Positions 23,454-32,000 of a stretch of 32,000 bases of DNA are shown piece by piece. The stretch covers positions 870,001 to 902,000 of the forward strand of contig NC_007205.1 of assembly GCF_000012345.1 (NCBI RefSeq), in the 5' to 3' direction. Positions within the stretch are counted from its first letter, which is position 1. The number at the start of each line of letters is the position of its first letter. Position numbers and translations under genes: made by a program. The DNA comes from Candidatus Pelagibacter ubique HTCC1062. GTDB lineage: Bacteria > Pseudomonadota > Alphaproteobacteria > Pelagibacterales > Pelagibacteraceae. The notes beneath the pieces were generated by a model. That model ran no database searches and had not been told where the DNA came from. It worked only from the letters and a program-made list of their open reading frames with translations.

Positions 23454-23538
23454 AAAATTAAAAAAAAAGTTTAAGAAATAAATACTTTTACCTTTAAAAA
23501 CCCAAACTGGTCACTCAACCTTTATTAGAATATTTCTA

Positions 23539-25455
23539 ATGATTTATAAAGAGTTCGTGTACCAAAAAATTATAAAAATTGTATTAATCTTAAGCCTTAG
23601 CTTGTTGGCTTCGTGCGCCAATAGAGGCCCATTGCCATTTTCTTTTGATTTTTTAAAGAAATCTGCTGATGAAGATATTGAAAAAATTTCAAAAATTAGA
23701 AAGCAAAATGAAATATTACAAAAAAACTTAGACATTGATTTATATACAGCGATCGCCCTTGCAATCGAAAATAACAAAGATTTAAAAGTAAAATTATTCG
23801 AAACCGCATTAGCGGACCGTCAATTGAAAGACGTAAAGTTTGACATGTTACCAACCATGTCAGCTAATGCAGGTTATTCTGGAAGTGACAATTATCAATC
23901 ATCCACAAGTGCAACTGTTGGAAATAATGATATAGCAGCATCCAAAGGGTCTACATACTCTACATCACGAAATAGAGATGTTGTTGATCAAGATATAGGT
24001 TTTGCTTGGAACGCACTTGATTTTGGTTTGTCTTATATCAGAGCAGGGCAAACAAGCGATCGATTTTTAATTGCAAAAGAGATAGAAAAAAAATCAGCTA
24101 ACAATATTGCAAAAGAAGTTATTCGATCTTATTGGAATGCTCTTTCTGCAGATAAGTTAATTCAAAAATACGATCCTTTAATTAAAAAAGTAAAAATAGC
24201 TTTAAGCGACTCTCAAAAAATAGAAGAGATGTTGCTACAAAAACCAATGGATGCACTTTTGTATCAAAAAGAATTGCTAGATATAAAGAGAGCTCTTATT
24301 ACACAAAGACAAACTTTAATTAATTCTAAAATTGAATTAGGAACCTTAATGGGATTGTTGCCCAACCAAAGCTATAAATTAGTAGCAACCAATCAACCTA
24401 TCAATATTTTAGACATGGATTTAAAAAACATGGAAAAACATGCTTTAGTTAGTAGAGCAGAGTTATTAGAAAATCGATATCAAGAAAGAATATCCGTTGC
24501 TGAAACTAAAGTTGGATTAAGATCTTTGTTACCTAATTTTAATATTAACGCAGCTTTCACAAGTTCTTCAAATGATTATCTACAAAATAAATCAAATTTT
24601 GAATTTGGTTCTTCAGTTGGCGCAAACTTATTAAATGTCTTTAGAGCACCATCGATTAAGAAAATGAATGAGGCAAATACAGAAATTATTAAAGAACAAC
24701 GTCTTGCTTTATCTATGGCTATTTTATCACAAGTTCATTTAGCAAATATCGATTTTCAAATGAGCATGGAAGAATATGATACGGCTGAACGTTATTTAAA
24801 AGTTTCAACAAAAATTGCCGACCAAGTTCGAAACGCACAAAAAATTGCAAGATTTGGCGAATTAGAATTAATTAGAGAAGAAGCGGGTACTCTTGTTGCT
24901 GAACTAAGAAGAGACATTTCATTCTCTAAAATGCAACATTCAATTGCACAAGTTTATACCTCAGTTGGAATTGATATTACCACAAGAGACACCATAGTAG
25001 GGGGAACGGAATTATTTGCATATGAAATTAAGAATAAATTTAGTGGTTTAGGTAAAAAATACATTGCAAAAGTAACAGAACCTATTCAAAAACAAAATCC
25101 AGTTGCTAAACAATTTGATGAAAATTATAAAAAATTTGAATTTTCAGATAAAACATTCAAACTTGAAGGTCAAGGTTCTGTTCAATATTCAGCAAGATTA
25201 GCAAATGATCAACCATTACCTAGTTGGATAGATTTTTTACCAACGCAAAGAGCGTTTTTAATAGACTCGGTACTAAAAGGTGACATTCATGAAATAGAGC
25301 TCATTGTTAATGCAAAAAATATCAATTCTACAGTTGATGATCAATTTACTTTGATAGTGGATCCAATTTTAAAGAGCCAAAAAGATTTAGCAAAAATAAT
25401 AGGTACCACATTAAAAGAAAAAGCTGAAATAGTTAAAGCTTCAAAAATCCAATAA
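23539..25455 (+). CDS. outer-membrane efflux (TolC/OEP-family) lipoprotein with a C-terminal extension of about 150 aa
   Basis: Lipobox LLAS-C, with Cys26 at nt 23614-23616. An OEP-type repeat starts at LDIDLYTAIALAIENNKDLK, and a second repeat lies around LDMDLKNMEKHALVSRAELLEN. At 638 aa it is much longer than typical TolC-family proteins. Confidence 0.85.
   Translation: MIYKEFVYQKIIKIVLILSLSLLASCANRGPLPFSFDFLKKSADEDIEKISKIRKQNEILQKNLDIDLYTAIALAIENNKDLKVKLFETALADRQLKDVKFDMLPTMSANAGYSGSDNYQSSTSATVGNNDIAASKGSTYSTSRNRDVVDQDIGFAWNALDFGLSYIRAGQTSDRFLIAKEIEKKSANNIAKEVIRSYWNALSADKLIQKYDPLIKKVKIALSDSQKIEEMLLQKPMDALLYQKELLDIKRALITQRQTLINSKIELGTLMGLLPNQSYKLVATNQPINILDMDLKNMEKHALVSRAELLENRYQERISVAETKVGLRSLLPNFNINAAFTSSSNDYLQNKSNFEFGSSVGANLLNVFRAPSIKKMNEANTEIIKEQRLALSMAILSQVHLANIDFQMSMEEYDTAERYLKVSTKIADQVRNAQKIARFGELELIREEAGTLVAELRRDISFSKMQHSIAQVYTSVGIDITTRDTIVGGTELFAYEIKNKFSGLGKKYIAKVTEPIQKQNPVAKQFDENYKKFEFSDKTFKLEGQGSVQYSARLANDQPLPSWIDFLPTQRAFLIDSVLKGDIHEIELIVNAKNINSTVDDQFTLIVDPILKSQKDLAKIIGTTLKEKAEIVKASKIQ
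25135..25365 (+). other. cadherin-like (dystroglycan-type, CADG/He_PIG-like) Ig-fold domain fused to the C-terminus of the TolC-like protein
   Basis: FEFSDKTFKLEGQGSVQYSARLANDQPLPSWIDFLPTQRAFLIDSVLKGDIHEIELIVNAKNINSTVDDQFTLIVDP. The pattern Y-A-L-(N/D)-PLPSW(L/I)-F-then-GD/G-...-I-V-A-D-...-F-L-V is the classic signature of this domain family. Confidence 0.6.
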
Positions 25456-25458
25456 ATT

Positions 25459-25464
25459 AAGGAG
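25459..25464 (+). promoter_or_regulatory. Shine-Dalgarno AAGGAG for the small basic ORF
   Basis: AAGGAG lies 5 nt upstream of ATG 25470 and is the strongest SD match I noticed. Confidence 0.6.
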
Positions 25465-25469
25465 ATCTA

Positions 25470-25697
25470 ATGAAGAAAATTACAAAGAATATTAAGGTTA
25501 AAGTTGCCTCGAATAAAAAAAAAGTTTCAGGAAACATATTGAATGCACCTAAAACACATAAATTACCTCGTGTGGTTAAAGCAAGAGCAGGACAAACTAT
25601 AACAGGTAAAATTGGAGGTATTAGAAAGACACCCAATAAATCAATTGCAAAACCAGGACAAACAATAACTGGTAAAATTAGACGAAGAACCAATTGA
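25470..25697 (+). CDS. small (75 aa) highly basic protein with an internal 22-aa tandem repeat; function unknown
   Basis: It has a strong SD and Lys-rich composition like the host proteome. I recognise no hydrophobic segment or family. The motif (A/P)GQTITGKI occurs twice. Its TGA overlaps the TTG start of the giant ORF. Confidence 0.6.
   Translation: MKKITKNIKVKVASNKKKVSGNILNAPKTHKLPRVVKARAGQTITGKIGGIRKTPNKSIAKPGQTITGKIRRRTN
25588..25679 (+). repeat. 66-nt-period imperfect direct repeat inside the small ORF
   Basis: caggacaaactataacaggtaaaatt at 25588-25613 versus caggacaaacaataactggtaaaatt at 25654-25679, both encoding GQTITGKI. Confidence 0.8.
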
Positions 25698-28600
25698 CCC
25701 AAAAACCTAAAAAGAAACAGAAAATATTTATAGAAGCCCTTGAGCAGAGGATAATGCTCGACGGAGCAGGGGCCTCAACCTTTTTAGATTTAATTGATGA
25801 ACGTAATCAAGAAGATATAAAAAAAAACTCTAAAATAATCGATACCACTAAAGACAACAATGAAGTTCCTTTTGCAAACACTGCAAGAGACCAAAACAAA
25901 AAAAATGTAGTCTTTATTGATAGTGCTGTCTCTGATTATGAAACCATTATTAATTCATTTAAAGAAAACACTGAGTTTTATTTAATCAACTCCAATGAAG
26001 ATGGATTTAAAAGAATTAGTGAAATTTTAAATGATCGAAAAGATATTGATGGTTTACACATCATCGGTCACGGTAGTGCTGGACAAATTTTATTTGGTAA
26101 TGCCTTTTTAAATAACGATACCATCACTAATTACCAATCAACTTTAGCATCCATTGGTCAATCGTTAACCACAAGTGGAGATATTTTATTTTATGGTTGT
26201 AATGTAGCTTCCACTGAACAAGGTGAAATTTTAATTAAAAAAATATCAGAGATTACTAAAGCAGATATTGCAGCGTCAGATGACCTTACTGGTAAAGGTG
26301 GAGACTGGGTATTAGAAAAAAAAGAAGGTTTAATTGGTGAAGAAGAACTTAAAGTTAAAAATTACAAACATGCTCTTGGATCATTATCTTCTTCAGGTGT
26401 TCTATCTAACTCAGGTGTTACTCATATTGATAGCAATGTTACAATGATGAATTCTGGTAATGTTGGACTTGGAAGCTCAGGAGCTTTTGCAACAGTTGGT
26501 TCTGATTTTGGTTTAGCTGTAGAACAACAAAATGTTTCTGTTTCTAGTGGAGAATTAATTTCGAATCTTGATGTTGATTCAACTTATATTTTCGATGACG
26601 ATAATGATACTGGAGATGCTGCATTACAAAATGGAGCTAATCAAAATGCTTCAAGCAATATTACGGTAAATTCATATCTAATGTTTCTAGTAGAGGATAT
26701 AAACAAAAGAGCCAGTGGTTCAGCTGGAGAAGTTGTTTTTGACGGTGAAATAGTTGGAATATTTTTTGATCAAGCAAAAACTCGAGCAGCAAGTGTTGGT
26801 GGTAACACATATCATTCTGGCAATTTAATTTATGCAATGAGTGGTAGCGGAGGAAGTAGCAATTCTTCAGATAATGACGGTGGTAGAATGGCAGAGGGTA
26901 AAAAAAGTCATACTGGTATGACAAACTTCTTTAATACTACTCAATCTCATAGTTCATCTGCAGCTATTGCAAATGGTAGTAGCGGTTCTGATTGGGTTTC
27001 TGTTTCAAATCATGGAAGTGGAACAAATAATCTTTTACAATTTGGAGCGCAGAATGCGAATGTTTCCGCTGGAGATTATATAAGAATTCTCGTTGTACCA
27101 AACTCATCAGATGGTTCAGCAACTGTTGAAGAAGATGGCTCTGTATCAGTTAGCAATGGAGGAAGCGCTTCAAGTCCTGATCCAATTACAGTCGACTCAG
27201 GATCTACATTAAGTTCATCATCAGGTAGCCCAAGAAGAATGACTTTTAGCGATGATGGGACTAAATTATTTGTTCTAGAGCATACTAACGATACAATAAC
27301 TACACATAATCTTGGAACTGCTTACGATATTTCAACCCAAACTTCATCAGTAACAGGTACTACTTTAGCCTCAAACCCTCATTCCAGTTCCAGGGCTTAT
27401 GGAATAGCTTTTAGCAATGATGGAACTAAAATGTTTACATCAGATCTTGATACAGGATATGTTTATCAATCGACTTTGACTACCCCCTGGGATGTGTCCA
27501 CAAATCAAAGAAGTTCTTCAGATGATTTAAATACAGTTTCTCTTTATGGAGTAACAGCTAGTAATAGCTTATATAATAGAGACATTACATTTAGCGAGGA
27601 TGGAACCAAATTATTTATTTTAGGGTCTGATAAAACAGTTCATCAAATTAGTTTAGGAACAGCATGGGATCTATCATCTTATCAAACTCCAGATGTTGAA
27701 AAAGATCTTTCATCAATCCTAACCGACACATATGCCAACTCAATTAGCTTTAGTCCAAATGGAAAAAAAATGTTCATCAATGAATATAATAACACAATTC
27801 ATGAGTTTTCAATTGCAACTGCTTGGGATTTATCTTCAACGGTTACCAATGAAGGAAGTTTTCAATTAGGAACAGAAATAGCAAGTAATAATTTTGGAGA
27901 AGTTACTTGGAATAAAGATGGAACAAAACTTTTTGCAATAGATGATTTAGCTGAGGATATTACTGAGTATACTGTTTCAACACCATTTTCACTTGCAAAT
28001 GTGGATCAAACTAAATCTGCCGAAAGTATCTCAACTGTTTCATCAATTAGAACAGGAACAGTTGCTGCAGGAAGTGGAACATCAGGTTCAACTAATACTG
28101 CTTTAACCGGAACTTACGGTCAGTTAACTATTCAATCCAATGGTTCATATAGTTATGTTGCAAATCAAGATGCAGCGGATGCACTAGATCCAGGGGATAT
28201 TGTGTATGATTATTTTACTATTAATGGAGATACAGATTTAACAATTACCGTTATAGGTATCAATGATACACCAATCGCTGACAATGAAACTAATTCAACA
28301 GATGTTAGTACAACATTAACTGTTACAGATGGGTCTTCAGATGTTTTAGCAGGTGATACGGATGCTGATGCAGATGCATCTTTAACTGTTTCTGCAATCA
28401 GAACAGGTTCATCAGAAGGTTCAGGTGACGCAGGTACAATTGGTTCAGCTTTAAATGGAAGTTATGGTGCTTTAACAATGAACTCTGATGGTACCTATAC
28501 TTATGTTGCAAGTTCAAGCGCTGGAACTGATAGTTTTAACTACACTGTAACCGATGAATTTGGTGCAACAGATATTGCAACGTTAACTATTACTGTTAAT

Positions 28601-31600
28601 TCATCTAACGCTGCACCTACCGCATCTAATTCAACAGTATACATTAATGAAAATAACCAAGTATCTTCAGCAGGAGATAGAACACCATCTAATATTTCAA
28701 AAATATTTGCAGCCAGTGATTTTAATTATTCAGACGGTGATAGTGATAGTTTATCAAAAATAAAAATTACTACTTTAGAAAGTGCGGGTGTTTTAGAATA
28801 TTCATCTAATGGATCATCTTGGGCTGATGTAACTTTAAATCAAGAAATAACAGCGTCAGATATTAGTAATAATAAATTAAGATTTACCCCAGCTGCAAAT
28901 TCAGAAAGTAATGTAACGTTTGGTTTTAAAGTTCATGATGGTACAGATTATAGTTCATCAGCTTACACAATGACAGTATCTGTTAACGCTGCACCAAATG
29001 TTACAGATGCAACAGTTGGATCAACAGTGTCTGCTGATGGAACCAGTTCCGGTGATGTTCATGATGGTGTTGCAGATAGTGATGATGCTGATAGTGTTTT
29101 AGTAGTAACTGGTGTTGCATCAGGAAATGAAAGTTCAAATAATTCAATTGTAACCGATAATACTGGGGTTGGTTCAGCAGTATCTGGAACCTATGGTTCA
29201 TTAAATATTGCTGCAAACGGTACTTATACTTACACAGCAAGTTCAACAAATAATATCGCGTACGATGCAACTGCAACAGACATTTTTACATTTACTACAC
29301 GTGATGATGAAAGTAATTCAGGATCTAATGCCTATGACGTAGGTAGCATTACTTTTACCGTTGCAAGTTCAATTTCTTTAACAGATGACACGGATAGTGT
29401 TAATGAAGATGCAACAATTACTAAAACTGGTTCTCAAGACGATGTATTAAATGATGATGCTGCTGATACTAATGGTTTAGTAGTCACCCATATTAAAAAA
29501 GATGGTGGATCAAATTCAACAGTTGCTAGTAGTAGTACTTATACATCTAACGGAACTTCTGTTACGGGTACTTATGGTACTTTAGTAATTGGTGCGGATG
29601 GTTCTTATACTTATACAGCCGATCAAAGTGCTGCTGATGATTTAGATTTAAATGATGAAGTAACAGATGTATTTGTCTATACGGCAGATGGTGCTACAGC
29701 AAATTTAACTATTACAGTAACTGGTATCAATGATGTACCAGAAGCTGCAGATAAAACTGTAACTACAAATGAGGATACAGCTTATGTATTTTCAGCATCA
29801 GATTTTGGCTACACAGATGCAGATGACGATGATGCGTTAGTAAGTGTAAAAATTACAGGATTAGAAGATGCTGGTGCTTTACAATATAATAATGGTAGTG
29901 CTTGGGTAGATGTAACTGAAAATCAAGTGATAACAGCAACGGATATCGGTAATAATAAATTGAGATTTAACCCAGCTGCAAATGAAAATGGATCTTCTTA
30001 CACTAGTTTTGATTTTACAGTAAATGATGGCGATGCAGATAGTGCCTCAGCTAATACAATTACAGTCAATGTAACAGCAGTTAACGATGCACCTGTTGCA
30101 GATAACGAAACTAATTCAGTCAATGAAGATGCAACATTAACCGTTACCGATGGAACTTCAGATGTTTTACATGGAGACACTGATACTGAAAATGATGCAT
30201 TAACCGTTACCCAAATTGCAGTAACAGGTGCATCTGCTTCATCAGTTGCAGGAAGTAGTACTTACAATAGTAACGGAACATCAAAAACAGGTACTTATGG
30301 TACTTTAGTAATTGGTGCGGATGGTACTTATACTTATACAGCAGATCAATCAGCTGCTGATGACCTTGATGCTGGAGATACCGCAACCGATAGTTTTACT
30401 TACACGGTTTCAGATGGAACCGCAACGGATACTGCAACAATTACAATAACAGTGACAGGTATCAATGATGTACCAGAAGCTGCAGATAAAACTGTAACTA
30501 CAAATGAGGATACAGCTTATGTATTTTCAGCATCAGATTTTGGCTACACAGATGCAGATGATGATGATGCGTTAGTAAGTGTAAAAATTACAGGATTAGA
30601 ATCTGCTGGTGCTTTACAATATAACAATGGATCAGCTTGGGTAGATGTAACTGAAAATCAAGTGATAACAGCAACGGATATCGGTAATAATAAATTGAGA
30701 TTTAACCCAGCTGCAAATGAAAATGGATCTTCTTACACTAGTTTTGATTTTACAGTAAATGATGGCGATGCAGACAGTGCCTCAGCTAATACAATTACAG
30801 TCAATGTAACAGCAGTTAACGATGCACCAACTGCAAGAGGTGACACTGGTATTGTAAATGAAGATGTAACGTTAACAGTTTCTAATAGTAGTAATGCAAC
30901 AACAAGTGTTACTGCAGCTTCATTTGTTAGATCTAAATCTTTAGGGGATGCAGGATATCAAAGTCAGGAAACAAAATTTAGTCCTGATGGAACAAAAATG
31001 TTTGTGCTTGATACTTATCAAAATACAAATGAAATTCATCAATATACATTAACAACCGCCTTTGATATTTCTAGTGCTTCATTTGATGGTGCAGATGAAA
31101 CTTTTGACCTTAGTAATGAGAATTCTTCATCGAGTAATTTCACATTTAATAATGATGGAACCAAATTCTATTCAGCTTATTCGGGTAGATTATATGAATA
31201 TGACGTATCAACTGCTTATGATATTTCCACAAGTTCTTATAATAATAATTTCTTTGATTTAATACTGGAGTACCCAAATACTCGTAATATGGGTAGTGGT
31301 GTAAACGTAGCATTTAATAGCGATGGAACCAAATTATTTGCGCTAGATGCACAACAACGTGAAGTGCATGAATACTCTCTTTCAACTGCCTTTGATGTAA
31401 CTTCAGCATCTCGTACAAATAATTATGTAAGTGTTGGCACTCAAGAAGCAAGTCCATACGGTTTTGCATTTAGCAATGATGGAAAAAAAATGTTTATATC
31501 TGGATTGGGAAAGGATGTTAATGAATATACACTCTCAACTGGTTTTGACTTATCATCTACTTTTGAGTTTGTAGGTAGTTTTGATGTTTCATCTAAAGAT

Positions 31601-32000
31601 TGGTATCCACTCGGTATTACATTTAACAATGATGGTACAAAAATGTTTGTGACAGGCTCACAACAAGATAAACTTTTTGAATATTCGCTTACTACTCCTT
31701 TCAGCTTAATAGATGTATCAGGTGAACATTCAGGAGATGTCATTAACACAAGTTCAACAGATAATTATGATACAGACCCTGAGGGCGACGCACTAACGGT
31801 TACAACTTACTCTCATACATCAGCAACAGATCAAGATGGGGGTAGTATATCTTCAACAAGCAGTACTGGAACAGCTGGAACCAACAATGTTACAGGTTAT
31901 TATGGAACATTGGATTTAGAAGGTAATGGTTCTTACACTTATACTGCAGATCTAACAGTAACTCAGGCCTTAGATTCAGGAGATACTGTAACAGATATAT
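25694..32000 (+). CDS. giant repetitive surface/secreted adhesin-like protein (DUF4347 N-terminus, propeller-like cassettes, VCBS and cadherin-like repeats); 3' end lies beyond the window
   Basis: Hand translation of the frame with positions congruent to 2 mod 3 shows no stop from 25682 to 32000. The previous in-frame stop is TAG at 25679-25681. This gives at least 2102 codons. The ORF is not in the supplied track, presumably because it has no stop in the window. The N-terminus reads (M)TQKPKKKQKIFIEALEQRIMLDGAGAS. Confidence 0.9.
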   Translation, partial: MTQKPKKKQKIFIEALEQRIMLDGAGASTFLDLIDERNQEDIKKNSKIIDTTKDNNEVPFANTARDQNKKNVVFIDSAVSDYETIINSFKENTEFYLINSNEDGFKRISEILNDRKDIDGLHIIGHGSAGQILFGNAFLNNDTITNYQSTLASIGQSLTTSGDILFYGCNVASTEQGEILIKKISEITKADIAASDDLTGKGGDWVLEKKEGLIGEEELKVKNYKHALGSLSSSGVLSNSGVTHIDSNVTMMNSGNVGLGSSGAFATVGSDFGLAVEQQNVSVSSGELISNLDVDSTYIFDDDNDTGDAALQNGANQNASSNITVNSYLMFLVEDINKRASGSAGEVVFDGEIVGIFFDQAKTRAASVGGNTYHSGNLIYAMSGSGGSSNSSDNDGGRMAEGKKSHTGMTNFFNTTQSHSSSAAIANGSSGSDWVSVSNHGSGTNNLLQFGAQNANVSAGDYIRILVVPNSSDGSATVEEDGSVSVSNGGSASSPDPITVDSGSTLSSSSGSPRRMTFSDDGTKLFVLEHTNDTITTHNLGTAYDISTQTSSVTGTTLASNPHSSSRAYGIAFSNDGTKMFTSDLDTGYVYQSTLTTPWDVSTNQRSSSDDLNTVSLYGVTASNSLYNRDITFSEDGTKLFILGSDKTVHQISLGTAWDLSSYQTPDVEKDLSSILTDTYANSISFSPNGKKMFINEYNNTIHEFSIATAWDLSSTVTNEGSFQLGTEIASNNFGEVTWNKDGTKLFAIDDLAEDITEYTVSTPFSLANVDQTKSAESISTVSSIRTGTVAAGSGTSGSTNTALTGTYGQLTIQSNGSYSYVANQDAADALDPGDIVYDYFTINGDTDLTITVIGINDTPIADNETNSTDVSTTLTVTDGSSDVLAGDTDADADASLTVSAIRTGSSEGSGDAGTIGSALNGSYGALTMNSDGTYTYVASSSAGTDSFNYTVTDEFGATDIATLTITVNSSNAAPTASNSTVYINENNQVSSAGDRTPSNISKIFAASDFNYSDGDSDSLSKIKITTLESAGVLEYSSNGSSWADVTLNQEITASDISNNKLRFTPAANSESNVTFGFKVHDGTDYSSSAYTMTVSVNAAPNVTDATVGSTVSADGTSSGDVHDGVADSDDADSVLVVTGVASGNESSNNSIVTDNTGVGSAVSGTYGSLNIAANGTYTYTASSTNNIAYDATATDIFTFTTRDDESNSGSNAYDVGSITFTVASSISLTDDTDSVNEDATITKTGSQDDVLNDDAADTNGLVVTHIKKDGGSNSTVASSSTYTSNGTSVTGTYGTLVIGADGSYTYTADQSAADDLDLNDEVTDVFVYTADGATANLTITVTGINDVPEAADKTVTTNEDTAYVFSASDFGYTDADDDDALVSVKITGLEDAGALQYNNGSAWVDVTENQVITATDIGNNKLRFNPAANENGSSYTSFDFTVNDGDADSASANTITVNVTAVNDAPVADNETNSVNEDATLTVTDGTSDVLHGDTDTENDALTVTQIAVTGASASSVAGSSTYNSNGTSKTGTYGTLVIGADGTYTYTADQSAADDLDAGDTATDSFTYTVSDGTATDTATITITVTGINDVPEAADKTVTTNEDTAYVFSASDFGYTDADDDDALVSVKITGLESAGALQYNNGSAWVDVTENQVITATDIGNNKLRFNPAANENGSSYTSFDFTVNDGDADSASANTITVNVTAVNDAPTARGDTGIVNEDVTLTVSNSSNATTSVTAASFVRSKSLGDAGYQSQETKFSPDGTKMFVLDTYQNTNEIHQYTLTTAFDISSASFDGADETFDLSNENSSSSNFTFNNDGTKFYSAYSGRLYEYDVSTAYDISTSSYNNNFFDLILEYPNTRNMGSGVNVAFNSDGTKLFALDAQQREVHEYSLSTAFDVTSASRTNNYVSVGTQEASPYGFAFSNDGKKMFISGLGKDVNEYTLSTGFDLSSTFEFVGSFDVSSKDWYPLGITFNNDGTKMFVTGSQQDKLFEYSLTTPFSLIDVSGEHSGDVINTSSTDNYDTDPEGDALTVTTYSHTSATDQDGGSISSTSSTGTAGTNNVTGYYGTLDLEGNGSYTYTADLTVTQALDSGDTVTDI
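25904..26317 (+). other. DUF4347-like N-terminal domain of the giant protein
   Basis: NVVFIDSAVSDYETII...DGLHIIGHGSAGQILFGN...GDILFYGCNVAS...ADIAASDDLTGKGGDWVLE is the pattern characteristic of DUF4347. It is preceded by the LE-x-R-I-(M/L)-(L/F)-DGA motif usual at the N-terminus of such giant proteins. Confidence 0.7.
27233..28003 (+). repeat. beta-propeller-like cassette 1: five blade-like repeats of about 50 aa
   Basis: Five units fit the pattern (I/V)xFSxDGTK(L/M)F...(E/Q)(Y/F)xLxTA(W/Y)D(I/L)S(S/T): MTFSDDGTKLF..AYDISTQ, IAFSNDGTKMF..PWDVSTN, ITFSEDGTKLF..AWDLSSY, ISFSPNGKKMF..AWDLSST, VTWNKDGTKLF..TPFSLANV. Confidence 0.65.
29723..30093 (+). repeat. near-identical 371-bp direct repeat, copy 1
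   Basis: It aligns without gaps to 30458-30828 (offset 735 nt, or 245 codons) with about 9 mismatches by hand count. Confidence 0.9.
30458..30828 (+). repeat. near-identical 371-bp direct repeat, copy 2
   Basis: See copy 1. Both encode GINDVPEAADKTVTTNEDTAYVFSASDFGYTDADDDDALVSVKITGLE..AGALQYNNGSAWVDVTENQVITATDIGNNKLRFNPAANENGSSYTSFDFTVNDGDADSASANTITVNVTAVNDAP. Confidence 0.9.
30962..31717 (+). repeat. beta-propeller-like cassette 2: five blade-like repeats, homologous to cassette 1
   Basis: TKFSPDGTKMF..AFDISSA, FTFNNDGTKFY..AYDISTS, VAFNSDGTKLF..AFDVTSA, FAFSNDGKKMF..GFDLSST, ITFNNDGTKMF..TPFSLIDV. It ends with the same TPFSL motif as cassette 1. Confidence 0.65.

Follow-up and report, generated by a model that had tools for sequence, protein, structure and literature searches.

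A defining feature of type I secretion is its ATP-binding cassette (ABC) exporter. In the type I systems that handle giant adhesins (LapA/LapEBC of Pseudomonas fluorescens, MpIBP, SiiE/SiiCDF, and BapA), a TolC channel and HlyD-type adaptors are encoded together with a giant protein of immunoglobulin (Ig)- or cadherin-type repeats, which has no Sec signal and carries a conserved C-terminal end, as well as a folded N-terminal domain that may act as a plug or anchor. These same features are found in a module of Candidatus Pelagibacter ubique HTCC1062 that is described here. The SAR11 bacteria, to which this organism belongs, are the most abundant in the ocean, have minimal genomes, and are regarded as strictly free-living. 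The module runs through the last quarter, and beyond the end, of a stretch of 32,000 nucleotides (assembly GCF_000012345.1, contig NC_007205.1, positions 870,001 to 902,000 of the forward strand) with a G+C content of about 28%, referred to below as the window.

The part of the module that lies in the window consists of three genes, listed below, and an original prediction made for this stretch had proposed them as a candidate adhesin module, in a three-part arrangement not recognized as a described system. No published description was found; the three genes are, however, the 5' half of a larger conserved cassette and not a stand-alone system, and their arrangement is a rearranged form of a widespread cassette of five genes. 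Its gene content and linkage recur in two gene orders and in three proteobacterial classes, its products have recognizable domain homologies, and no ABC gene is linked to it. We read it, with a probability of about 0.6, as a conserved module for the export of a giant repeat protein, either secreted or displayed on the cell surface, which would work by the mechanism proposed below. It is very likely that the genes form one functional module of export or display, and the details of the mechanism are tentative.

23539–25455, + strand: TolC-family lipoprotein, an outer-membrane factor of 638 residues with a C-terminal extension (two Pfam OEP matches, E 1.4e-25).
25459–25464, + strand: Shine-Dalgarno sequence AAGGAG, 5 nt 5' of the small open reading frame (ORF), read from the sequence.
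25470–25697, + strand: small basic protein of 75 residues (ORF; no Pfam or NCBIfam match).
25694–32000, + strand: 5' part (2102 codons) of the gene of a giant repeat protein, the presumed exported substrate, open to the end of the window (open frame and domain matches).

The gap of 14 nt between the TolC-like gene and the small ORF contains the AAGGAG, and the TGA of the small ORF overlaps the TTG of the giant gene at 25694 in a shared TTGA; all three ORFs, the gap, and the overlap lie where the original prediction had placed them. The 185,579 species genomes were searched with the alignment of the TolC-like protein and the best 80 loci were kept, all of them from Pelagibacterales or from single-cell genomes titled 'uncultured Alphaproteobacteria', with TolC identities of 42–98%; the protein of the window was also found in genomes titled Candidatus Pelagibacter and Pelagibacteraceae. 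A giant gene with DUF4347 is located within 10 kb of the TolC gene in 76 of these 80 loci and is directly adjacent to it in 74, the flank being cut on the relevant side in the remaining four. The giant gene follows downstream in the same orientation in nine loci, is positioned divergently 150–300 bp upstream in 65, and lies at about 9 kb in two. The co-occurrence of the two genes in related genomes that had been supposed is thus borne out in two gene orders and several contexts: the TolC and giant genes form a functional pair that has been conserved, and the three-gene arrangement, seen again in dozens of species, is not due to chance. In the two loci with the wide gap, L028 and L050, the giant gene is divergent and located about 9 kb away from the TolC gene, compared with the usual spacing of about 200 bp.

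In all 34 loci in which the giant gene ends inside the locus, it is followed on the same strand by three further genes. The first product, membrane-fusion protein A (MFP-A), is an adaptor of the HlyD/RND type with about 245 residues and a signal peptide, whereas MFP-B, with about 445 residues, has a single membrane segment preceded by a cytoplasmic N-domain of about 180 residues. The third (M50-MFP) is a protein of about 700 residues in which a Peptidase_M50 membrane domain (E 8.8e-10) is fused to an HlyD-type domain. The adaptor families were assigned through Pfam and NCBIfam (HlyD_3, HlyD_D23, and RND_mfp). The residues HELGH (195–199), as well as Asn289, Pro292, Asp297, and Gly298 of M50-MFP are invariant across clades, and the protein has eight hydrophobic segments; it partially matches the family of daptide intramembrane metalloproteases, at 137 bits against a cut-off of 300. 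The original prediction had pointed to the region 3' of the giant gene as the place to look for HlyD-like genes, and three proteins with HlyD-type domains are indeed encoded there, beyond the window. In turn, a motif scan of 115 loci (1.94 Mb) found no HlyB-type ABC exporter, with transmembrane and nucleotide-binding domains, within about 10 kb, and the ABC-type ORFs in these loci are only short stand-alone ATPases of the importer type.

For the lineage of the window itself, the missing 3' part was reached through L018, the TolC protein of which is 99.7% identical to that of the window and which has a complete giant gene for 2071 residues. The last 27 bases of that gene were used to fetch the metagenome contigs L103 and L104, which overlap the 3' end of L018 at 98.9% and 95.4% identity and continue into an adaptor of 373 residues, an adaptor of 444 residues, an M50-adaptor of 700 residues, a pilin-like gene, pyrG, and kdsA. 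The complete module of this lineage sits between secG and pyrG–kdsA (window 23454–32000 plus L104 1–7953), in the order TolC-Ig, small basic protein, giant protein, periplasmic HlyD-type adaptor, membrane-anchored HlyD-type adaptor, M50-adaptor, and pilin-like gene. The first adaptor (L104 6816–7937, − strand) comprises 373 residues instead of about 245, with an extra N-terminal VCBS/Big_9-like unit that resembles the repeats of the giant protein (BLASTP E 8e-5 to 1e-3).

Some features of the downstream proteins may be added. The N-domain of MFP-B, of about 180 residues, is conserved and has no family match (L104 5485–6819, − strand; L039 2777–4114). The MFP-B gene starts with TTG in L030, L037, L039, L062, L068, L103, and L104, and with GTG in L058; it overlaps its neighbors at both ends, with its start in the stop of the upstream adaptor and its stop in the start of the M50 gene. 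The N-terminal part of M50-MFP (about 95 residues) was considered as a PqqD/RRE peptide-binding domain, an assignment that found no support in a per-sequence Pfam scan or in a profile search of the PDB.

Searches for homologues of the M50 fusion were dominated by near-identical SAR11 sequences, and it was a plasmid collection that yielded the distant cassettes: when plasmid and chromid records were searched in translation with this protein, 74 matched, 59 of them over at least 80% of the query length. The order substrate, TolC, adaptor, adaptor, M50-adaptor is found in each of the five annotated neighborhoods outside SAR11, none of which contains an ABC gene, and the cassette spans alpha-, beta-, and gammaproteobacteria. 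The substrates and channels of these five are as follows.

Azospirillum argentinense: DUF4347 protein of 3489 residues; TolC protein of 616 residues.
Escherichia coli, IncF plasmid: 'Ig-like' protein of 4459 residues, N-terminus ...FALESRQLFDGAA; TolC protein of 639 residues.
Variovorax paradoxus: tandem-95 repeat protein of about 16,000 residues, with a gsp type II secretion cluster after the cassette; TolC protein of 527 residues.
Burkholderia anthina: DUF4347 protein of 3302 residues; TolC protein of 550 residues.
Magnetospirillum pMSR-1: repeat protein of 492 residues; TolC protein of 543 residues.

In the E. coli substrate, a DUF4347-like segment (IHILSHG...GDILLYGC), recognized by eye, comes after the N-terminal motif. 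The E. coli cassette is rare, with 24 carriers among 5426 complete genomes, and its genes bear only generic product names there. It is located (NZ_CP081687.1, 44829–64580) on IncFIA/FIB plasmids, as well as on a few chromosomes, flanked by insertion-sequence elements. The TolC proteins outside SAR11 are also long, with extensions that are unrelated or of low complexity; that of E. coli, with 639 residues, ends in a different C-terminal domain of about 110 residues. The Magnetospirillum partner of 492 residues (L114 8505–9983) is built of ELWxxDGT repeats and keeps the C-terminal He_PIG-like Ig domain and the tail. DUF4347 and the LEPR motif are missing from this protein, which represents a minimal substrate or else a remnant.

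The TolC-family protein of the window can be divided into four parts.

23539–23616, + strand: lipoprotein signal peptide ending in the lipobox L-A-S-C (Cys26), with a hydrophobic segment at residues 6–24 (translation).
23737–24978, + strand: TolC/OEP core, residues 67–480 (Pfam OEP stretches, a weak TIGR01844 match, and fold matches).
25069–25356, + strand: Ig-like beta-sandwich of the He_PIG type fused to the C-terminus, residues 511–606 (all-beta in the AlphaFold model, predicted local distance difference test (pLDDT) about 75–84).
25363–25449, + strand: charged C-terminal helix, residues 609–637 (secondary structure of the model).

The homologues of this protein number 1129, with 613–920 residues, and in their alignment the lipobox Cys is nearly invariant and the Ig domain is conserved to the same degree as the channel core. 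The score for TIGR01844, the TolC subfamily of type I secretion, is 25.6 bits, far from its cut-off of 225. The AlphaFold model of the full-length protein, based on a 15-sequence alignment, has a pLDDT of 48 and was used only for the C-terminal domain and for coarse fold matches; despite this poor model, Foldseek matched it to TolC, OprM, OprN, CusC, and CmeC with E of about 3e-4. The fold matches of the extension are Ig-like domains, aligned over about 98 columns, its Pfam match is He_PIG at E 0.11, and a sequence search of solved structures with this domain returned no match. Its relation to the giant protein is evident from hhalign, which pairs it with each of the two Ig domains at the C-terminus of that protein (Prob 95%, E 1.7e-8, and Prob 94%, E 7.6e-8). 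The expected kinship between the extension and the domains of the giant protein is supported by this profile match to He_PIG-type Ig domains; of the description of the extension as Ig/cadherin-like, the Ig-like fold stands and 'cadherin' is only loosely right. In solved structures of the TolC family, both chain ends are located at the periplasmic equatorial domain, so the Ig domain should hang in the periplasm; by analogy with these structures, it is most likely placed beside the channel rather than forming an adhesin-like part at the surface. Since the TolC Ig domain and the VCBS unit of the first adaptor are both of substrate type, two machine components of the window lineage carry such domains.

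The relatives replace the C-terminal helix with tails rich in Lys and Glu, of up to about 300 residues (homologue alignment, and translations from L019 and L020). In L019 (4634–7129), L020 (10001–12655), and L021 (10001–12763), the TolC relatives comprise 780–920 residues, and their tails after the Ig domain, in which a motif of about 40 residues is repeated (...KDG..[FLY].L[FY]SDEEI...I.KQ[ED][KR][KR]N..[LI]RKK[LI]...), are probably coiled-coil.

The giant gene starts with the TTG at 25694 and not with the ATG at 25754 picked by gene callers. Its frame opens only at 25682, four codons 5' of the TTG; the N-terminal motif precedes the later ATG, and relatives carry an ATG at the exact position of the TTG (MTKKPKRKQKIFIEALEQRIML in L020), all of which identify the TTG as the true start. 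The parts of the encoded protein that lie in the window are listed below.

25727–25783, + strand: motif of the LEPR-XLL type (FIEALEQRIMLDGAGASTF), with a basic stretch before it (NF012209, 15.5 bits against a cut-off of 17).
25907–26371, + strand: DUF4347 domain (PF14252), residues 72–226 (Pfam E 1.2e-49).
27224–28063, + strand: first block of five 'DGTK[LM]F' repeats of about 55 residues (motif positions; no Pfam or NCBIfam match).
28064–30865, + strand: VCBS/cadherin-like repeat region with units of about 730 nt (Pfam and NCBIfam matches, direct repeats D1–D3).
30866–31723, + strand: second block of five 'DGTK[LM]F' repeats (motif positions; no Pfam or NCBIfam match).

The N-terminus has no hydrophobic segment and neither a Sec nor a Tat signal. 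The motif LE[PQ]R[IL]M[LF]DGA is universal in the SAR11 homologues, each of which opens with a short basic segment before it, with Asp23 and Gly24 invariant, and the score for NF012209 falls just under the cut-off because the window lineage has Gln in place of Pro (LEQR, not LEPR). The canonical LEPRIMFDGAA is found in other SAR11 clades, in Azospirillum, and in Burkholderia, and the motif is also present in the E. coli substrate. In addition to DUF4347, the domain matches of the giant protein include Cadherin_4, Big_9, Cadherin_3/5, VCBS, and tandem-95, as well as repeats of the BapA/LapF type below cut-off; the DGTK[LM]F blocks possibly form five-bladed propellers. Tandem Repeats Finder reported nothing in the giant gene, the dispersed repeats of about 730 nt having been found otherwise. 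The C-terminus, read in complete relatives, comprises two Ig domains of the He_PIG/Rib type and a conserved tail of about 25 residues, F.SL..QL...(8)..YG..LI..L. A similar C-terminal Ig domain is present in the Burkholderia and Magnetospirillum substrates, and tails of similar character are found in all four substrates outside SAR11 whose C-terminus was read (Burkholderia, Magnetospirillum, Azospirillum, and E. coli). In the last 376 residues of a complete close relative, only He_PIG and RibLong were matched, with no autotransporter or YadA barrel. Among 35 complete giant proteins, the GGxGxD motif occurs 0–2 times per protein, and these proteins thus have no RTX arrays; HemolysinCabind was not matched in the window or in the C-terminal part of the complete close relative. 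No match to the retention-module family was found in the giant protein at E ≤ 0.1.

Complete relatives of the giant protein have 1577–3106 residues, and fragmented calls on long-read contigs suggest more than 5000. The gene is hypervariable among strains the flanking genes of which are about 99% identical. A segment of 2.3 kb corresponding to window positions 26323–28615, which includes the first DGTKLF block, is missing in L009, L017, and L018. In L011 (GCA_000472585.1, KI421437.1), the giant gene lies near the contig end, is interrupted by a run of N, and is split into several calls, which makes the public annotation of this gene unreliable.

The DUF4347 domain has a caspase-like fold in its predicted structure and a probable catalytic dyad, His126 and Cys169 (codons 26069–26071 and 26198–26200). 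The AlphaFold model, derived from an alignment of 50 sequences in which His122, His126, and Cys169 are invariant, has a core pLDDT of about 90, and its best 50 Foldseek matches in the PDB are all caspases (E 3.3e-4 to 2.8e-3, probability 0.91–1.0, about 130 columns). His126-Gly127 and Cys169 each follow a strand and are separated by 43 residues, compared with 42 for the catalytic pair of caspase-3. In the only local profile alignment obtained, which is not significant (E 0.12), His126 falls on His121 of caspase-3; a link between DUF4347 and caspase-3 at the level of sequence was rejected on account of this value. A sequence search of solved structures with DUF4347 gave a single non-significant match (E 0.045).

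In turn, the small protein is an accessory and not a core part of the module. It contains 22 Lys and Arg residues, no Asp or Glu, and two GQTITGKI units, with no Pfam or NCBIfam match, no transmembrane segment, and no signal peptide. Its composition suggests a cytoplasmic location, for which reason a regulatory role or the binding of nucleic acid is possible. In 44 loci, 26 variants of 51–87 residues were found, with the consensus K.I.IKIN..K..GN[IL]F...VK.G..I.GKI.LKK, always directly behind the TolC stop (−50 to +37 nt), whichever direction the giant gene takes; a ratio of nonsynonymous to synonymous substitution rates (dN/dS) of 0.1–0.5 indicates purifying selection. These variants at a fixed position, as well as the dN/dS values, rule out a spurious ORF. 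A fusion of the small ORF to the giant gene by frameshift was likewise rejected, since the giant gene of relatives has an ATG start and the divergent order keeps the small ORF with TolC. When 1.84 billion representatives were scanned in full with HMMER, only about seven true small relatives emerged, and the larger multi-stretch matches, which might have indicated a wider family, are repeat artefacts. Several SAR11 lineages, the clades at 42–47% TolC identity, and all cassettes outside SAR11 have no small ORF, which is confined to a single subgroup of SAR11. The original prediction had tied this protein to the adhesin; instead it is linked to TolC, behind which it stays when the giant gene is divergent, and it is a lineage-specific accessory of the TolC gene.

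The genes located 5' of the three are core genes: dnaE, rpsB, tsf, uppS, dxr, and bamA, and further the lpxD/A/I/B cluster, gltX, lexA, trpCDGE, tpiA, and secG, as well as a gene with a SurA_N domain (PpiD-like). In other SAR11 lineages, the module is found beside pilin genes, beside PilY1, next to a photolyase gene, or elsewhere, and since its contexts differ so widely, it has the character of a movable island. In SAR11 and in Variovorax, the cassette has pilin-like (N_methyl) genes, PilY1, or an entire gsp cluster for type II secretion as its neighbors (L104 2669–3307, L020 7947–9870, L019 8392–13185, and L112 16273–24903), and a functional link of the cassette to pseudopili is possible.

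What we infer from these data is the export itself, together with its direction and energy source, as well as roles for the Ig domain, DUF4347, and the small protein. In the mechanism that we propose, a TolC trimer and the three adaptor-type proteins would together make up a duct across the whole envelope, comparable to those of type I secretion and tripartite pumps. The M50 fusion would hold the place that the ABC transporter has in the inner membrane in type I secretion, and perhaps cleaves the substrate or a partner. The giant protein would enter by its conserved C-terminal end of Ig domains and tail; exit with the C-terminus first is suggested by the analogy with type I substrates and by the conservation of this tail. 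Once outside the cell, repeats of the calcium-binding type would fold, pull the protein out, and thereby give direction, so that the LEPR motif and the caspase-fold domain would exit last and could plug the channel, anchor the protein, or release it by self-processing. The periplasmic Ig domain of TolC would be a plausible docking or retention site, as it is of the same type as the C-terminal Ig domains of the substrate.

Several points weigh against this reading. Export of the giant protein by these genes would follow from their linkage only, and no energy source was identified in the module. The scan for ABC exporters covered about 10 kb around the module in 115 loci, and an unlinked exporter may be encoded elsewhere in the genome. 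The caspase match of DUF4347 has a modest E (3e-4) and low template-modelling (TM) scores, and the alignment with the caspase-3 sequence is not significant, as noted above. The placement of the Ig domain in the periplasm would hold only as far as the solved relatives are a guide, the TolC part of our own model being poor. For the small protein, no homology to any characterized protein could be detected. Finally, matches to sigma-70-like promoters are no commoner than in sequence that had been shuffled, and the scan for terminators found none.

A classical type I secretion of the Lap type, in which an ABC transporter and an adaptor export the adhesin C-terminus first until its N-terminus is lodged in TolC, would account for a TolC-family gene and HlyD-type adaptors in one module, for a substrate that has no Sec signal and ends in a conserved tail, and for the sub-threshold repeats of the BapA/LapF type; the ABC gene could lie elsewhere in the genome. 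We nevertheless consider it unlikely. The original prediction had leaned toward such an ABC-driven route, which the loci do not bear out: no exporter with both ABC domains is linked to the cassette, either in the 115 loci or in the five cassettes of other genera, the substrates have no RTX arrays and match no retention-module family, and no LapG- or LapD-like genes were seen among the annotated neighbors inspected, although no search was aimed at them. Instead, the third component that is conserved is a fusion protein with an M50 domain. It is less probable still that TolC, the two adaptors, and the M50 fusion constitute a device for the processing and efflux of peptides or small molecules, next to which the giant gene is merely co-located or co-regulated; the exported product could then be, for instance, a peptide released by cleavage, perhaps the small basic protein. 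Peptides are the typical substrates of M50 proteases, the partial daptide-protease match points the same way, the module has no ATPase such as would be expected to drive the transport of a protein with 2000 to more than 5000 residues, and the Magnetospirillum partner has just 492 residues. However, a gene for a large repeat protein stands beside the cassette across three proteobacterial classes and in both SAR11 gene orders, and its N-terminus with LEPR/DUF4347 is found in four of the five genera, the exception being that same Magnetospirillum partner. Furthermore, the small ORF is missing from most cassettes, and the cassette proteins of the window lineage carry domains of substrate type.

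The third explanation, a type V autotransporter adhesin with an unrelated TolC gene beside it, appears highly improbable. It derives from a 2025 preprint with the annotation and structure model of an 'autotransporter adhesin' in coastal Pelagibacteraceae, the gene of which is 5–9.5 kb long, sometimes lies in hypervariable regions, always adjoins type IV pilus/type II secretion genes, and is reported absent offshore (bioRxiv 10.1101/2024.12.23.630198). That gene probably belongs to the same family as the giant gene described here, as its size range and pilin-gene neighborhood fit. The family described here differs in having no barrel domain, in being tied to TolC, adaptor, and M50 genes, and in its presence in 76 of 80 species; the C-terminal 376 residues of the complete close relative contain only Ig-type domains (He_PIG and RibLong), there is no N-terminal signal peptide, and the linkage to the TolC and adaptor genes is strict.

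An export module for the giant protein remains the preferred reading, and it bears on SAR11 biology, as nearly every SAR11 lineage sampled keeps a module of 10–25 kb for a giant adhesin-like protein. Its retention in such minimal genomes argues for an important surface function, such as attachment, interaction with phages or grazers, or nutrient capture. If the giant neighbor is indeed exported without an ABC transporter, this would be a new way to move very large proteins across two membranes, and it would provide a first function for DUF4347, the LEPR-XLL motif, and the M50-HlyD fusion proteins. A literature search, outside the reach of which lay most subscription journals, found no description of the cassette, of a function of DUF4347, of the LEPR-XLL motif, or of M50-HlyD fusions. 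Since the cassette is present on E. coli plasmids and in Azospirillum, it is open to direct genetics, and the Magnetospirillum protein would be useful for deciding which end holds the export signal.

Comparison with self-processing domains of clan CD (caspases and the cysteine protease domain (CPD) of MARTX toxins) reveals in DUF4347 a similar caspase-like fold and His/Cys spacing, within a giant protein that is presumably exported; the invariant Asp-Gly of the N-terminal motif lies just upstream of the domain. DUF4347 differs in its position at the extreme N-terminus, in having no similarity at the sequence level, and in that conserved pocket residues (Arg or Gln) were not recognized in it. 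Like the site-2 proteases (M50; YydH and the daptide protease), the M50 domain is polytopic in the membrane and carries the motifs HExxH and NxxPxxxxDG, whereas its fusion to an HlyD-type adaptor and to a conserved cytoplasmic N-domain of about 95 residues, its encoding together with TolC and giant genes, and its score far under the daptide cut-off set it apart. In common with tripartite pumps (TriABC-OpmH; the OprM, CusC, and NodT family), the cassette has a lipoprotein outer-membrane factor with two OEP repeats and more than one adaptor species per operon. Its inner-membrane partner is, however, not of the RND, MFS, or ABC type, its neighbor is a giant protein and not a regulator, and its outer-membrane factor is 130–450 residues longer than usual.

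The differences from the giant-adhesin type I systems introduced at the outset concern both machine and substrate. The cassette has an M50-adaptor fusion and two adaptors in place of the ABC exporter, and its TolC protein carries an extra C-terminal domain; its substrate has no RTX nonapeptide arrays, starts with LEPR-XLL and the caspase-fold DUF4347 instead of a Lap retention module, and is accompanied by no LapG or LapD among the annotated neighbors. The component families are thus known, and the module resembles a type I or tripartite system, but it does not have the ABC exporter, a defining component of type I secretion. We can speculate, with less confidence than in the export function as such, that it represents an unrecognized class of TolC-dependent export, in which M50-MFP and two adaptors replace the ABC exporter in a machine dedicated to giants of the LEPR-XLL/DUF4347 type, the caspase-fold domain controls their anchoring or release, and the SAR11 version has captured Ig and VCBS domains of its substrate and gained a small basic accessory.

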